A stretch of 61,362 nucleotides of DNA, filler included, from Globobulimina sp. (Eukaryota): assembly GCA_003354225.1 (NCBI GenBank). It is 20 parts of 20 records of this genome, joined end to end, with 100 filler letters (N's around TTAATTAATTAA, not from the genome) between each part and the next. Parts side by side here need not be neighbours in the genome. Positions count along the whole stretch, not along the records: positions 21,526 to 24,499 come from PIVH01004176.1; 19 more parts are not named here. One strand, 5' to 3'. The translations under genes and the position numbers were made by a program. Shown one piece after another: positions 21,146-51,573 of the stretch (position 1 is its first letter; every line of letters begins with the position of its first letter). The notes under the pieces are model-generated. The model was given only the letters and a program-made list of their open reading frames with translations, was not told the origin of the DNA and did no database searches.

Positions 21146-21525
21146 TTCTAGTAGAGATCCATATTTTGCAGCTCTTTCTTTATGCTCGGTATACAACAAA
21201 AAATCACGAATGGTGTATCGACTTTATGGACGTTGCCAGATGATGAAACAGTGTATTTAGCTTTGATTTCAGTCACAGTGATGTCAGTCATTTGACAATC
21301 CAAAAAAAACAGAAAATCCGGAAATATGCACTTATTACATTTTCAGTTTTTATAACAACAAGTTGTACGAAATTTCATATACAATTCTAAATATAACTTT
21401 TCTCAAACAAAAAAGTTATATTTGANNNNNNNNNNNNNNNNNNNNNNNNNNNNNNNNNNNNNNNNNNNNTTAATTAATTAANNNNNNNNNNNNNNNNNNN
21501 NNNNNNNNNNNNNNNNNNNNNNNNN

Positions 21526-23656
21526 CAAATCATAAGTTCCGCATTATTCCTGCTCAAATTCTCAACAAAAAATGCATTTAATTCCTTAACATTTTTATAT
21601 TGCTTCGCTTCCTTTAATTTGGAATCTAAATTATACCAAATACCATCGATATTTTTTATTGCAATCCAATGGCGGCGAGTAAACATTTTAAACATTGCTT
21701 TTTGGGGACTATTTAATATAAATCCGGCGAGTCTTTTATTACCGGATTCTAAATAATTAGAAAATGTGTCATCTTCTAAATCAAACTCATTTGCTTTGCG
21801 TGCATCAAACCATTCGACATCAATATCAATTTTAGACAATGCCATCATCAAAACATTAGCATCGTAATTTCCTGTTTGCAATACTGATCGGTGCGGATTT
21901 ATTAATTTATTTGGTGCTAATTCTTGACAAATTTCATTCATTTTCTTTACAGAAAACTGCTGTTTTTGCAACAATGCGTTTAAAGCATGAATCAAACACA
22001 TTTCCCACGCTTGCTTCTCATGATAAAGCTCTCCATTTTCTGTGTATGTACATATGTATAAATTAAAATTGTGCTCATATAAAATTAAAATATAATTATC
22101 ACAAATAATACCAAAATTATCTTCATTTACTTTTTCGTCGATATAATCCATATAATAAAAATGCATAACTTCAACTTCCTCCCCTTCAGTTAATGCACTC
22201 GGAAACTTTGGCGTTGATTTCATTGGTTTGCTATATAAATCACCTTCGACATCACTATCCATTTCAGAATCATAACCGGGAGTTATTACATCACCACCTT
22301 TTGTCGGTTCACCTTTTGTTGTTTGTGTCATTTCACTCATTTCACTCATTTCATCATCATTGTGCAGGTTGGTCAACAATATATAATCAAAACCATTATC
22401 ATTATAATTTTGAGACTGTTTTTCTTTTTCTTGTTCTTTTTGTTTATGTTTCTTAAAAACTACATAAAAAATAATAATAAAGCAACATATTACTATAACA
22501 ATAACAGTCAATATTATTGCTGTGGATATGTGAAATCTATTATGTCCCTCTTCAGTCGCAGAATGCGTCGCGGTGTGTTCTGGAAGTGGTGAATCTATGC
22601 GTATCATATTATTAATTATATGTTTTAAAAATGAATTTATATTATACAGAAAACCAACGTACCCGATGGAGAGGCGGAGATCGGAGATTTGCTTGGATAT
22701 ATTGTAGGTGCAGCTGTCGGATTGTCTGTTGGTCAAATAATTATGTTTCAAATCAATATAGGTTTTCAAAAGAAAATATTAACATTACCAGAGGGCTCGA
22801 CGGTGGGATCGTTGGTTGGATCATTCGTCGGATCATTGCTTGGAATTTCGGTGGGATCGCTGGTTGGAATTTCTGTCGGGCCGTTCGTCGGATCATTCGT
22901 TGGGTCATTCGTCGGGGTTTTAGAAGGATCGTTTGTTGGAATTTCGGTCGGATCGTTGGTTGGAATTTCAGTGGGATCGTTGGTTGGATCATTGCTTGGA
23001 ATTTCAGTCGGATTCTTTGACGGAAACTGAGTGGGACTCTCAGTAAATGGAGTTTGTATTTGAGACAAATCGAATGTGAAAACATTTTTGATGCCTGTAC
23101 CGCAGTTAAAATTGCCACCAACACCACATGTCCATATCCAAGTTGCTCTGTATGGACTGTCTGTTAACTCTACAGGAATATTTTTGATGTACCAAGTTGA
23201 TTGTTCTGGAATAACAATTGTTGTTGAAGTGCCTGTCGTGCTTTGTAATTCATAATAATTGAGAGCTAAATCTGTGGAATAATAATCGCCATTATATTCA
23301 ATACAAAATATCAATCCACCTGCACCAGGATCATCAGCCCGGTTGTAGCAGGAAATTTTAATTCTACCATTTGAGTCAACAGACGAAATGGTTCCACTGT
23401 TCAACTTTTTCTGTGTCATGAATTGAGTGTAGATATGACATGAAACAACAGAACAAATATAAAATTAACAAACCCAGTCTGAAGGATTCGGTCCAAAGTC
23501 AACAGACACATAAGTTCCTGCGGTACTATCAGGCGAATACCATATACCATCAAATTTGTTATCACAGCGTCCATAAATATTCAAATCACCAATAATCACA
23601 CCACATGAAATTCTGGATAATACTAATAGCAGTAAAAGGCGGATAGTGTTCTTCAT
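21526..23656 (-). CDS. Predicted receptor-like Josephin deubiquitinase: signal peptide, lectin-like ectodomain, PT-repeat stalk, TM helix, Josephin domain (3'-truncated)
   Basis: Four GT-AG introns (23411-23473, 22726-22788, 22595-22662, 22040-22111) give one continuous frame. Josephin motifs YHEKQAWEMCLIHALNALLQ, GNYDANV and RHWIAIK...WYNLDS are intact. Confidence 0.75.
22790..23040 (-). repeat. Coding 12-bp PT-type tandem repeats (PTND/PTEI/PSND)
   Basis: About 20 tetrapeptide units forming a mucin-like stalk. Confidence 0.92.
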
Positions 23657-23738
23657 GATCCGATGTTAGTTAAAAAGAAAAAACCTAAGCACCAATTTTG
23701 CAATACTTTATATCCTTGCACTCGCAAGAGAAAATATA

Positions 23739-24499
23739 ATGTCATTAAATATATTATTGCTATCCATTATACGCAATACATTTGCAATTGGTGATACATG
23801 CAGTGATTCATCCATATACCACGTAGATTGGCCAACAATAACAATGTCTGGGGATATTCCCGATTTTGCATATTCAATAGAATTTGATCAATTTAATTTA
23901 GAGATTGTAATCAATGTAAATCTGACCTATTTAGGCTATTCAACAGATAAAGATTCCAATATATTAGGCACTACATACGTACTGGATTTTGAGTCGCTAT
24001 CCGCCCATCTTTTGCCCTTAAATAAACCCGGTACGTGTTCGAATCGAGTTGCTTCTGATTTTAACAGTGTAGACCCAACCCAATGGTTTGGTTATTCCCA
24101 CGCCAATCCACCCATTGTTGGCGATATTGATTTTTTAGCATATCCTCCTTCGGGAACAGATTGGTTCATTGAATCCATTGATTGCAACACCATCCATTAC
24201 GAAGGTTTCTTTTCATATAAACAATTATTTGATGAATGCAGAAATTATGCTGGAGATCGAAAATATTCGCTACTGAGCACTGATGACAAATGGATTAATT
24301 TAACATTAACTTTCTATATAAATATCGTTTCCCCATTGGCTGTCAGTTTAAGTGGAAGTGGCTATTATCGTATTTACCAATTATTGTCTGCGCCGTTTGT
24401 GATTGCAATCAGTAAAACAATATTCGTTTTGGAACCAGTGGGAATGCGATTATTTACAATGTCGGTCATTGCTGTTTATAAACAACATTCGCAGCATGA
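23739..24499 (+). CDS. Secreted or surface protein of unknown function, 3'-truncated
   Basis: Signal-like start MSLNILLLSIIRNTFA and an uninterrupted beta-rich, Cys-containing ORF running to the linker. Confidence 0.7.
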
Positions 24500-36428: not shown

Positions 36429-36490
36429 TGTGATTGGGATTTGAACCCAAATCTTCTTTAATAAGACGCTCTCATTGAGCTATCATCACT
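36429..36490 (-). pseudogene. Degenerate tRNA-like element (tRNA pseudogene or SINE head)
   Basis: The minus strand reads GTGA TGATA GCTC-AATGA-GAGC G TCTT-ATTA-AAGA AGAT TTGGG-TTCAAAT-CCCAA TCAC A. D- and T-arms and A/B boxes are recognisable. The anticodon loop is only 4 nt and the acceptor stem is shortened. Confidence 0.7.
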
Positions 36491-37543: not shown

Positions 37544-39784
37544 ATGAATCTTTTTTCCAAACTCATACCGATCATTTGGACATTTTTTCCAAACTTTTTT
37601 CCAAATATAAGTGCCCTATATATGCGCCATTTGGACATTGAAACGCTTAACCAACGTTCCAATGGTCATTATTTCCCGTCTCATCGCGACCCATACAAAC
37701 TATTTGTGCAAAATAGTGGGTTGTCGCACCTCTCCAAAGTGGAATTACGGCAATTGTTGGATAAGACCGACCACTATTTAATGATGTATGAAAATGAGTC
37801 CGCATTACCACCGCAGTACACCGCATGGTACGATGGATATGACAGCGAAAACGTAACACATCAGAAGTCATTACTCGCGAATGATGTGTTTGATTCTGAT
37901 GCATCTAATGAATGGATGCCATCGTCAAATCCAAAAACGACTGTGTCTTCCTCGGATACTGACGGCAATGACTCATTTGTGGCACGAAAACGGAAGCAAA
38001 AGCGACGATTAAATAAGAAATTTCGATCGAAGTCACGCAAGGCTAAATCCAAGGCTAGATTGAAGCCAAAATCGAAGCGCAAAAATCGCACATTTATTGC
38101 ACCTGTGAAGCGTACATTGGCCACGCCTAATTCACATCAAATTGTGCCCGAATCTGGCATAAAACCACGCAAAAATAAGCGAAAGCGCGCAGTATTCGAA
38201 TCCATAGATACAATTCCTTCAAATAATATCTATACCAGTCAGAATCAGGGAAGGACTGCTGCAATCGCTGATAAGATTGCTCCACAACCTGTGTTGACCC
38301 TGCCTGACTTGAATTTCCTAATTCAGAATACGTCTAACGACAAACAAGAGATGGATATTAGCGATAATGAGCAGAAACAAAGTCACAAACCTGTGCCAAA
38401 TGCGCCAAAACGTGCAAATCGTAAGTTTTACCCGCCACCGGCACCAAACTGTGATGCTTTCGAAACTCTGCGCAATATTCCCTCTCCGCCACGCTATGAA
38501 CGACCCAAGCACGATTATATCAAATCCCGAGAATTGCCTTGGGCAATGCGTAAATCTACGGTACGGCAACATAGGCCTGTCCAACGCCATAAACGCATGT
38601 CAGTACGCCCAAATGACGGACTATCCAATGCTGATTTGAAGGCACCATTGAATAGAGATATAAGGCAGGGATGTATCGATAATAATAAGTCCGATAATCA
38701 GCAAATCTTTGAGGACAAACCCACCGAGCATATTTGGAACGCCAATACATTACTCCCTCGCTTTGAAATCCCCATCGCTGATTATGGCAATGTTTTGTGT
38801 AGCGACACACACTACAGTCGGACTTTGATACGTCTCAAACAAAGGGAAGATCCACACATTTGGGGCATCATTCATTACCTTAAAACCGGCAATAATCTGA
38901 TTCCCAACGATTTCCCTATGTATTTGAAACGTTTTATGTTGGCTGGCAGATATGATTTGGATGTGAATGACATACTTGTGTGGAAACACGGCAATGGTAA
39001 ACATCGTTTACGCGTGATACCACCCGCGCTCCGCCAGTCATTGATTGACCATTTGCATACGGGTCACAGCGCCCTACGCCACCCACAAGTGCACCATTTC
39101 CACCACGGCAGTCAGAAAATGCTGTCCATTCTCAAAAACACTTTGAATTATTGTTGGCCTAAGGTTGAGCACCACATCAAAACGCATTGCATATGTTGCA
39201 ACACATGTCAGCATGTCAAACCTGGCATTTACCGCAAATGGCGACGCGGAGGTCAAATGAAGCTTTTCGTTGCCACTCGACCGTTTGAACAAATATCTGT
39301 GGACATCGTCGGTCCTTTGCCTACGAGCCATTCTGGTAATAGATATATTGTGTCAATGATTGACAGCTTCAGCCGTTATTGCATGCTCGTGCCCGTCAAA
39401 TCTGTCACTGTAATGGACGTAGTCCATTCAATTGATCGATGGATAACCACTTTTGGTCCGCCAAAATCTATTTTATCCGACAATGGCCCGCAATTTATTA
39501 GTAATATCTATAAAGATTACAATAAAAATTGCAGAGATGGCAATATAGGCATAAAAAGAAAATATACATCGACATATTACCCGCAAAGTAATGGGCAAAT
39601 TGAGCGAGTGCATCGTTGGATCAAAGAACGATTGGCATTGATAGCCTATGATGGCGCCAAAAACTTCGTTGACGGCACTGATGATTGGTCGGACTACCTC
39701 GGACTTATACAATATACCTATAATTCGACGCCAAATGGCATGACTACGTACAGTAGTGTTCCCGATAAGAGGTACGCATATTAG
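37544..39784 (+). mobile_element. Ty3/Gypsy-type integrase (HHCC + DDE core) of a truncated element
   Basis: HHG...CNTCQ zinc finger, PFEQISVDIVGPLP...NRYIVSMIDSFSRY, PKSILSDNGPQF, YPQSNGQIERVHR, YNSTP. Preceded by a long basic low-complexity region. Confidence 0.92.
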
Positions 39785-49622: not shown

Positions 49623-51440
49623 CTATTCTTCCATATCAGCATAGGGCATATCAACAATGGCAGTCATAAATGGAAAATGTGTCTTTTTACTCTTATTATT
49701 ATTTGATTGGATATCATTAATAAGAGCGAATTTGATTGGATCAGAATTGCCATTCGCTTCAATACATTTCACTTTGATATCATAGATATAATTTTGATTC
49801 GGTACTAATAATGGTATTTTTAATATTGCTCGATTTATTTTATAAAATGTATCATTAAACATGACAATCAGAGCAATAAATGAGATATGAACTTTTCCCA
49901 TATTTTTTAATGTAATTTGCAACGTAAACCATGGTCCTAAGCCTATAACTTTTACATTTAACAAGATATTACTATTATTATTCATACATCCCGCACCATT
50001 TTTTTTTAATGTATTGATATATCGATTATTGATTTTTAGCCGGAATTTAACAATTTCTTGCTGCCAAATCTTATGCATACTTTCTGCATTTTCTTTTTCA
50101 CGGTTTTCTTGATCTAAATACAATTGTGTTATGGCAGGCAAATTTAAGGGGATGTCTTGATCAGCAACACTATGCTTTTTATTTTCGCTGCGAATTTTAC
50201 TCAAATCACACCTTCGAGACATAATTTTTATATTTAAACATCCTGCGAGATTTAAAATAATTAACGTACATTCTTCACGTCCGTATTTACCAAATTTCAA
50301 TGCAGTGATCGGAGACTCATTCAATTCCAATAAATACAGTAAAACGTTATCTCTGTACATTGCAACGTTTCCGTTTTGAAAACCAATCAAAAATATATTT
50401 TCACCTTGAAATTTATTACCAATCATCGCTTCAATTGCGGTGATATTATGTTTAAAATACAACGACCATAACTTAACATTATTTCCTTTGATGTGATACG
50501 AATACAATGTTTTATTCAAACAAGAAACAATAATGCTTTTATTAAATGCAGTCATTGCAGTTATATTTGATTCTAATTCGATATTATTGCCTAATAACTT
50601 GCCATTGCGTATCGTGTATATCTTACTGGCTCTCGTGGCAATAATTAAGCGATAATCAATGGATAGCAACCCAATTACGGAGAGAATAAAGGGCACCGAT
50701 GGTATTCTGATGGTTTTTTTAATTAAAGCACCGGCTGAATCTAAAAATATAATGTCGTTATTTTCTGTTCCAATAATTAAGGAAGAAACTGAATTACTTT
50801 GAGCTTCTTCTTTTTTTATTGAGGTCATACAAGTAATGCATGTATTCATTATTAATTCCGATGGTTTATACGATTCGATGTATTTTAATTGTTCTACTCG
50901 ATCGTTGATGGACAGTATAAACATTGTACGAAAGGTTAATAACTCATTATCAAAATGCAGTTTTTTTAATAAATTTAGAGTTTCTTCAATAGAAATATCA
51001 TCACAGCGGCATGAATTCCAAATATTTAATTCTGAAGAATTTAGCGGAATTGTCGGCAATGAAAATTTAAAATATGGTCGCATCGATCTGTAAATGTAAA
51101 CATTAGAACCTGTTGCTACGCCAACTGCAGGTAATGAGGAGGATATGTTTGATGGATAGAATACGGATAAACATGATGCATGATCTAAGAGCTTGTGTGA
51201 TGAAATTAAATTCATTCCACGAAAGACCTTCAGTCGTTTTGAATCATCTACAACTAATAAGGCATGATTTCCATCATTGGTAATATCTACAGTTGCAATA
51301 CGTGATGAGGTGGCTCGTAGATGGGCCATGGGATCGTACCAGGCATGCAGCCATGGACCGGATGAGGATGATATCTCTTGTAAGCGTGCTGGTGGAGAGG
51401 CTGCCTGGTTCATAATATCCCTTTCTTTCCGGTCATCCAT
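49623..51440 (-). CDS. BBS1: Bardet-Biedl syndrome 1 protein (BBSome subunit)
   Basis: WLHAWYDP, RLKVFRG, IYRSMRPYFKFSLP, LIIGTE, FGKYGREE, QDIPLNLP, GLGPWF, PLLVP; full-length and intronless. Confidence 0.96.
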   Translation of the reverse strand: MDDRKERDIMNQAASPPARLQEISSSSGPWLHAWYDPMAHLRATSSRIATVDITNDGNHALLVVDDSKRLKVFRGMNLISSHKLLDHASCLSVFYPSNISSSLPAVGVATGSNVYIYRSMRPYFKFSLPTIPLNSSELNIWNSCRCDDISIEETLNLLKKLHFDNELLTFRTMFILSINDRVEQLKYIESYKPSELIMNTCITCMTSIKKEEAQSNSVSSLIIGTENNDIIFLDSAGALIKKTIRIPSVPFILSVIGLLSIDYRLIIATRASKIYTIRNGKLLGNNIELESNITAMTAFNKSIIVSCLNKTLYSYHIKGNNVKLWSLYFKHNITAIEAMIGNKFQGENIFLIGFQNGNVAMYRDNVLLYLLELNESPITALKFGKYGREECTLIILNLAGCLNIKIMSRRCDLSKIRSENKKHSVADQDIPLNLPAITQLYLDQENREKENAESMHKIWQQEIVKFRLKINNRYINTLKKNGAGCMNNNSNILLNVKVIGLGPWFTLQITLKNMGKVHISFIALIVMFNDTFYKINRAILKIPLLVPNQNYIYDIKVKCIEANGNSDPIKFALINDIQSNNNKSKKTHFPFMTAIVDMPYADMEE

Positions 51441-51573
51441 GATTCTGTTAATTGATTCAAAACAATTTTGTGATTTTGTCTTATGTATCCAAATATTATA
51501 TATTCGATTTGTGCATCAACTGTTGACATTCAAGCACCCAAAATTGTAGTAATTACAGCTGCATTCCTTAACC

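Follow-up and report, generated by a model that had tools for sequence, protein, structure and literature searches.

A foraminiferal gene predicted to encode a type I-like membrane protein with a cytosolic Josephin domain

The window analysed here is a stretch of 61,362 nucleotides (nt), filler included, from the foraminifer Globobulimina sp. (GenBank assembly GCA_003354225.1). It consists of 20 contigs of ~2974-2976 nt each, sorted by falling size and joined by linkers of the form N44 + TTAATTAATTAA + N44. The 20 contigs are separate, so those side by side need not adjoin in the genome. The gene in question lies on the contig at positions 21526-24499 (PIVH01004176.1, 2974 nt), in a very fragmented assembly. 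It occupies the minus strand at 21526-23656 and has five exons and four introns. In the 621-residue product, a signal-like segment is followed by an orphan ectodomain, a Pro/Thr stalk, a transmembrane helix, an acidic tail and a Josephin domain. The data support a single gene whose product would be a type I-like membrane protein, with a Josephin domain on the cytosolic side in which all catalytic residues are present.

Gene structure and transcripts

The gene was compared with contigs from public sequencing runs (Logan contigs, 150-390 nt long at this gene; runs X1, X5, X6 and X8). The exons and introns are as follows.

23474-23656, minus strand: exon 1, with the ATG, the signal-like segment and the first ~42 residues of the ectodomain; X5 joint 23410>23474
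23411-23473, minus strand: intron 1, 63 nt, GT..AG; exactly removed in an X5 contig (skip 63, side 64)
22789-23410, minus strand: exon 2, with the remaining ectodomain (to about residue 186) and the Pro/Thr stalk
22726-22788, minus strand: intron 2, 63 nt, GT..AG; removed in X5 (22725>22789), kept in X1 record 4 (22646-22972)
22663-22725, minus strand: exon 3, 63 nt, with the Pro/Ser/Thr end of the stalk; both flanking X5 joints at depth 39.1
22595-22662, minus strand: intron 3, 68 nt, GT..AG; removed in an X5 contig (22594>22663)
22112-22594, minus strand: exon 4, with the transmembrane helix, the KKHKQK flank and the acidic tail; X5 record 11 covers 22220-22382
22040-22111, minus strand: intron 4, 72 nt, GT..AG, in frame and stop-free; joint 22039>22112
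21526-22039, minus strand: exon 5, with the Josephin domain; truncated at the contig end, 21526

The ATG at 23656 on the minus strand is the first Met codon behind an in-frame stop. From here the spliced frame runs through 621 codons with no stop and is still open at the contig end. Such an open frame across introns is weak evidence when taken alone, because 2146 combinations keep the frame open when GT..AG pairs of 45-130 nt are enumerated blindly. The four-intron model is confirmed independently by the spliced X5 contigs, in which all four joints read CT..AC on the plus strand. The original prediction of five exons joined without a stop by four canonical introns of 63-72 nt is thus borne out. 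Its joints are exact in X5, and one of them is found in X8 as well. This is the joint of intron 4, which is removed in X5 (depth 129, side 137) and in X8 (shorter side 208 letters) and kept in X1 record 2 (22019-22272). In every aligned homologue, intron 4 faces a gap. The X1 contigs are unspliced through introns 2 and 4, as DNA would be. Because four exact canonical introns are removed in X5, we infer that this run contains complementary DNA (cDNA). With this reading of X5, which follows from the joints, the gene is expressed and spliced. The depth of X5 is non-zero in all 100-nt bins at 21526-23625 and zero in 23626-23725, as expected for a transcript beginning just upstream of the ATG.

The transmembrane helix and the Josephin domain also share one unspliced stop-to-stop open reading frame (ORF) at 21474-22778, as had been proposed from the sequence at the outset. 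Upstream of the Josephin domain, 246 codons are open in this frame. The chance of this at the local base composition is ~6e-9.

Some contigs of X6 and X8, which are 90-95% alike to the gene, have joints at 22595>22849 (skip 253 nt) and 22726>22836 (skip 109 nt). Contigs of the same kind also carry 27 other letters in place of 22026-22145 (joint 22025>22146). The probable source of these divergent pieces is a paralogue or a related organism in which the stalk is shorter and the segment ahead of the Josephin domain differs.

The predicted protein and its relatives

The Josephin domain starts at about residue 455. It matches the Pfam profile PF02099 with 79 bits against a cut-off of 26 (E value 4.4e-22). 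In a phmmer search of the sequences in the PDB, it aligns with residues 4-168 of human JOSD2 (6pgv) at an E value of 9e-34, and with ataxin-3 at 3e-5. The predicted Gln, Cys, His and Asp are in place both in the profile search and in the alignment with JOSD2, where Cys stands in MCLIHALN, His in RRHW and Asp in YNLDSKL. These residues, and three motifs of the tail to which we return below, are located as follows.

22374-22385, minus strand: YxxL-type tail motif, exon 4
22224-22238, minus strand: LYSKP tail motif, exon 4, aligned in the Bolivina relatives
22143-22163, minus strand: HFYYMDY tail motif, exon 4, aligned in the Bolivina relatives
22011-22013, minus strand: oxyanion Gln, Josephin domain, exon 5
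21996-21998, minus strand: catalytic Cys, Josephin domain, exon 5
21669-21671, minus strand: catalytic His, Josephin domain, exon 5
21624-21626, minus strand: catalytic Asp, Josephin domain, exon 5

In an alignment of 148 sequences, conservation is 90% or more in the columns of Gln, Cys and His, and the column of Asp reaches this level in alignments A1 and A5. The AlphaFold2 (AF2) model built with 148 sequences has a predicted local distance difference test score (pLDDT) above 90 across the Josephin domain. In a Foldseek search with this fold, the Josephin domains of JOSD2, ATXN3L and ATXN3 take ranks 1-5, followed by bacterial Josephin-like clippases. The top match is the JOSD2-ubiquitin structure 6pgv_A (E value 7.6e-11, TMt 0.76, 34% identity). 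In both sequence and fold, the domain has all the hallmarks of an active deubiquitinase of the JOSD type, and activity is predicted for it.

The signal-like segment takes up approximately residues 1-19 (23600-23656). By inspection it has a basic n-region, a Leu-rich h-region and small residues before the likely cleavage site. The hydropathy of the N-terminus peaks at 2.63 over 10 residues (residues 4-13), and the 19-residue value is 2.14 at residues 7-25. Where the original prediction had placed a signal peptide, the N-terminus is thus signal-like by hydropathy and inspection.

The ectodomain is ~165 residues long, contains five Cys and belongs to no recognisable family. It had been likened to CBM67 and lectins, and this likeness finds no support in any of the four kinds of search. 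Against Pfam at E values up to 1, the PT repeat is the sole match; against the sequences in the PDB, the best E value is 0.77. In the ESM Atlas the best score is 0.79, which is at chance level, and CBM_4_9 appears only at rank 21 with 0.75. Two homologue searches ('longer' and 'near') gave no usable match. A fold prediction for the exon-2 part alone, from the single sequence, has a pLDDT of 31.5, and the model is unusable.

The ectodomain core is also the part of the gene in which X5 differs most. In record 13 of X5, which covers 23051-23285, 20 of 235 letters are different, while the remaining X5 pieces differ by 1-2%. Among the 32 X5 differences listed, 18 codon changes are non-synonymous and 8 are synonymous, and the amino-acid changes cluster at residues 122-151 of the ectodomain. 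This divergent piece points to a fast-evolving ectodomain or to a paralogue.

The stalk of 111 residues contains 28 Pro and 20 Thr, and matches the PT repeat of Pfam (PF04886) with 55.1 bits against a cut-off of 26.2 (E value 5.5e-15). Tandem Repeats Finder (TRF) reports a tandem array in it at 22801-22988, with 7.8 copies of a 24-nt unit. Behind the stalk, the transmembrane helix spans residues 312-336 (22455-22529). Its 19-residue hydropathy reaches 3.43 at residues 316-334, which is the only 19-residue peak besides the N-terminal signal segment. Within the 15 residues after the helix there are six Lys or Arg. This flank includes KKHKQK and is positive-inside on the C-terminal side. Ectodomain, stalk, single helix and KKHKQK are all present where the original prediction had placed them.

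The tail between the helix and the Josephin domain has 118 residues and is acidic, with 29 Asp or Glu against 12 Lys or Arg. Its YxxL motif would presumably fit endocytic cycling. A complex prediction for the Josephin exon with a 51-residue tail segment, which includes LYSKP and HFYYMDY, scored 0.00 and carries no weight either way. At 22328 an X5 contig is 9 nt shorter, which corresponds to one in-frame unit of an MSE-MSE repeat. This is a length polymorphism of the tail.

Relatives were searched for with the part of the protein from the transmembrane helix to the Josephin domain as query. A word-indexed search found 54 proteins at E values up to 1e-3 among 1072 candidates, and some of these relatives carry ankyrin repeats. 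An exhaustive search found 787 relatives, 150 of them among the matches listed. A scan of 194 proteins for a 19-residue hydropathy mean of at least 2.2 flagged 10. In six of the 10, a transmembrane helix precedes the Josephin domain, and the parts follow one another as in the product of the Globobulimina gene. The original prediction had suggested looking in protist proteomes for signal segment, transmembrane helix and Josephin domain in this order, and these six proteins have it. All six (P0001, P0002, P0007, P0055, P0075 and P0108) are EukProt records of Bolivina argentea (EP01084). P0001 (610 residues) and P0002 (545 residues) are complete, and the other four are fragments. P0001 is 45% identical over 99% of the query. 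The fragment P0075 has 1519 residues: a Cys-rich repeat ectodomain of more than 1200 residues, a PT stalk, a transmembrane helix, a tail and a Josephin domain.

Among the seven type I forms, that is, these six and the Globobulimina protein, the tail is 80-149 residues long. A membrane-proximal Tyr-x-x-Leu is present in four of the seven tails and LY[AKS]KP in five. HFYY.DY is exact in five tails, and H[FY]Y is seen in six. The ectodomains show no such resemblance. Those of the relatives range from ~30 to more than 1200 residues, Cys-rich repeats included, and have no match in Pfam; between the ectodomains of the Globobulimina protein and P0001, no similarity was detected. Judged by their sequences, at least seven proteins form a family with a shared module of transmembrane helix, tail and Josephin domain, with LYAKP and HFYYMDY in the tail and with ectodomains in which no mutual similarity is detectable.

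The other four flagged proteins (P0018, P0080, P0101 and P0133) have other layouts and may be prediction artefacts. In P0101 the anchor is C-terminal, beyond a long extension. P0018, of 359 residues and very AT-biased, has apparently several hydrophobic segments before its Josephin domain (Pfam E value 3.5e-24), unlike the type I family. The other close relatives that carry a name come from Elphidium margaritaceum, Nonionella stella, Globobulimina turgida and Bolivina, and these Josephins are soluble. The relatives thus point to a foraminifer as the source of the window.

A quick maximum-likelihood tree was built from 43 chosen rows: the Globobulimina gene, 6 transmembrane forms, 7 named soluble foraminiferal proteins, 13 unnamed top matches and, as outgroup, 16 lower-ranked matches. 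The remaining relatives were left out, and four of the transmembrane rows are partial. In this tree, 25 foraminifer-type Josephins fall in one clade with the Globobulimina gene inside (support of 97 in the Shimodaira-Hasegawa-like approximate likelihood-ratio test, SH-aLRT). The rows nearest to the Globobulimina gene are transmembrane forms.

Proposed function and competing explanations

Based on these features, the gene probably encodes a single-pass type I protein that acts as a membrane-tethered Josephin deubiquitinase of the JOSD1/2 type, opposes ubiquitin-driven endocytosis and lysosomal sorting, and belongs to a foraminiferal family. We give this reading a probability of roughly 60%. Judging from signal segment, PT stalk and positive-inside flank, the stalk and ectodomain would be outside or luminal, and the Josephin domain would be in the cytosol, which is where ubiquitin occurs. 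The tether would hold a slow Josephin of low specificity close to the plasma or endosomal membrane, on its inner side, where it could strip ubiquitin from neighbouring membrane proteins, from the sorting machinery or from its own tail, and the removal of ubiquitin would oppose endocytosis and lysosomal sorting. The variable ectodomain might set where the enzyme is concentrated and which partners it meets.

Two reports provide the background of this proposal. In the available passages of one of them (PMC7479174), JOSD1, which has no hydrophobic motif, is localised at the plasma membrane and has an effect on motility and endocytosis. This agrees with the earlier statement that the characterised Josephins are not integral membrane proteins. 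The Globobulimina protein could be considered as a hard-wired counterpart of this peripheral membrane localisation of animal JOSD1. In the available passages of the other (PMC10643670), eukaryotic Josephins are slow on standard chains, and mixed or ester-linked ubiquitin is proposed as their target.

Several points weigh against this reading. The C-terminal end of the Josephin domain is cut off by the contig, so that profile positions 1-147 of 157 are covered; homologues extend 5-25 residues past the contig end, continuing ..CRK.. there. The calls of the signal peptide and of the topology are based on hydropathy and inspection. The tail motifs have a pLDDT below 50, in an AF2 construct retaining the in-frame intron 4. 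In the tree, the transmembrane forms do not group as one clade, and the transmembrane label needs 4 changes; the starred branches force only 1, which is compatible with a single origin. None of the listed runs has an RNA status on record. At the level of transcripts, the original prediction holds for the four spliced joints in X5. The span from the transmembrane helix to the Josephin domain is covered by no single public-run contig of this organism. The absence of such a contig is explained by the Logan contigs being only 150-390 nt long there, with breaks at the low-complexity stretch 22383-22455.

The protein could also be a true receptor deubiquitinase, which is possible but unlikely. Here, binding of a ligand by the ectodomain, or its clustering, would switch or relocate the Josephin domain, and the proteins would be a foraminiferal receptor family comparable to receptor kinases and phosphatases. 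One conserved module of helix, tail and Josephin domain stands under ectodomains without detectable mutual similarity, and the conserved tail motifs could be regulatory docking sites. The clustering of X5 amino-acid changes at ectodomain residues 122-151 points in the same direction. However, no ligand-binding family is recognisable in any ectodomain with Pfam. The divergent X5 piece (20 of 235 letters) could also be from a paralogue, and the pattern of codon changes is known only among the 32 X5 differences listed. Ectodomain diversity on one conserved tail fits a receptor family as far as sequences go, and falls short of showing signalling. It is doubtful, though conceivable, that the ectodomains are wired through the juxtamembrane YxxL/LYAKP/HFYYMDY tail, and that extracellular cues would in this way lead to ubiquitin removal at the inner face.

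It is improbable that the chemistry is non-canonical, with the protein being a membrane-tethered ubiquitin esterase (for Ser/Thr- or lipid-linked ubiquitin) or a ubiquitin C-terminal clippase and not a classical isopeptidase. Bacterial Josephin-like 'ubiquitin C-terminal clippases' (9f5t and 9g7g) do appear at Foldseek ranks 6-15, but they share 14-15% identity with the domain, which is much nearer to JOSD2 (34% identity, E value 7.6e-11). An esterase would agree with the slowness of Josephins on standard chains and the ester-linked ubiquitin proposed in the passages cited above (PMC10643670). Some deubiquitinases are also termed ubiquitin esterases in the available part of a preprint (10.1101/2020.05.11.087965).

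Another explanation assumes two products from one locus. The main product would be a soluble Josephin whose translation begins at a Met within exon 4, and its fusion with ectodomain and transmembrane helix would be a minor product or an untranslated read-through. Internal Met codons do lie ahead of the Josephin domain, and soluble Josephins of the same clade occur in other foraminifera (P0003, P0005, P0006, P0009, P0013 and P0016). The helix and the Josephin domain are joined by no single contig here. However, the 246 same-frame open codons upstream of the Josephin domain, with their chance of ~6e-9, would be out of place in such a locus. The motifs of the tail between the helix and the Josephin domain are conserved in the six Bolivina proteins, and the depth of X5 is unbroken across the region. 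In P0001 and in P0002, one complete protein extends from the signal segment as far as the C-terminus of the Josephin domain. This bears out the earlier claim of one gene and not a chimera. Taken together, two products are very improbable.

An assembly chimera or a decaying pseudogene, for which the contig of 2974 nt in a very fragmented assembly might be cited, is largely refuted and scarcely credible: X5 and X8, from two further studies, cover the junction of exons 4 and 5, X5 covers all four joints, the same architecture is present in a second species, Bolivina argentea, and 621 codons run without an in-frame stop.

If the family of membrane-tethered Josephins is active, it would be a natural experiment on the effect of membrane tethering on a Josephin enzyme. 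The substrates of Josephins are still debated. The family would mark a lineage-specific expansion in foraminifera, which are cells with extreme membrane and pseudopodial dynamics. The receptor explanation, if true, would imply a signalling principle without a described counterpart among deubiquitinases.

Genomic setting and comparison with known systems

A neighbouring gene lies head-to-head with the Josephin gene on the same contig (23739-24499, plus strand), and only 82 nt separate its start from the ATG at 23656. This neighbour has a signal-like N-terminus, leaves the contig after 253 residues and is covered in X1, X5 and X6. Its 253-residue product matches no Pfam family and shows no similarity to the ectodomain of the Josephin gene.

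The remaining contigs of the window encode ordinary eukaryotic genes: PIP5K, BBS1, a bromodomain protein, ankyrin repeats, a retroelement integrase and 2-oxoglutarate (2OG) oxygenases. The retroelement ORF, with an integrase core domain, is at 37544-39781 on the plus strand. The gene for BBS1, of the BBSome, is at 49626-51515 on the minus strand, and its presence implies a ciliated or flagellated stage for the organism. One transfer RNA at 36429-36489, minus strand, is the sole Rfam match at gathering score in the whole stretch. The content of guanine and cytosine is ~29-40% in 2-kb windows. An alternative genetic code was considered and rejected: under the standard code ORFs reach 773 codons, and since long ORFs are terminated by all three stop codons, there is no sign of stop reassignment.

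In open-access full text, no description was found of a Josephin or other deubiquitinase with an ectodomain in a type I or receptor-like layout, nor of Josephins in foraminifera. In the available part of a comparative study of the ubiquitin system (PMC4327156), which sampled a single rhizarian, Josephin is mentioned once and transmembrane never.

The closest known enzymes are human JOSD2 and JOSD1. The catalytic domain is shared over ~157 aligned residues, and YNLDSKL is found in it here as there. The two human proteins are small and soluble, whereas the Josephin domain of Globobulimina is the cytosolic end of a predicted protein of more than 621 residues with a signal segment, an ectodomain, a PT stalk and a transmembrane helix. 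The six proteins of Bolivina argentea, which are uncharacterised, share the whole order: signal segment, ectodomain, PT stalk (not in all cases), transmembrane helix, basic flank, acidic tail with LYAKP and HFYYMDY, and Josephin domain. The identity of their Josephin domains is at least 65% in alignment A5. Their ectodomains are without detectable similarity to that of Globobulimina, as compared for P0001.

Deubiquitinases are known as soluble, peripheral or organelle-anchored enzymes. Among them, USP30 and USP19 resemble the Globobulimina protein in that a transmembrane segment holds them on the cytosolic face of a membrane. They differ in having the fold of ubiquitin-specific proteases (USP) and organelle anchors, either N-terminal or as a tail anchor. 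To our knowledge, they are without a signal peptide, a stalk or an ectodomain. The gene is best described as a known enzyme family in a new architecture, and the proteins with this architecture make up a small family specific to the lineage. The architecture is firm as well as unusual; the function is what we infer from it, and such organisms do not lend themselves easily to experiments. The same layout of a variable outer or luminal domain, one transmembrane helix and a cytosolic enzyme that adds or removes a modification on nearby membrane proteins is seen in PA-TM-RING proteins, in E3 ubiquitin ligases of the RNF43/ZNRF3 type and in receptor-type tyrosine phosphatases. The enzymes are unrelated and the reaction of the E3 ligases is the opposite one, so the likeness is an analogy of layout with no sequence relationship. 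If the foraminiferal family is active, it could be considered as the eraser counterpart of the transmembrane E3 ligases.

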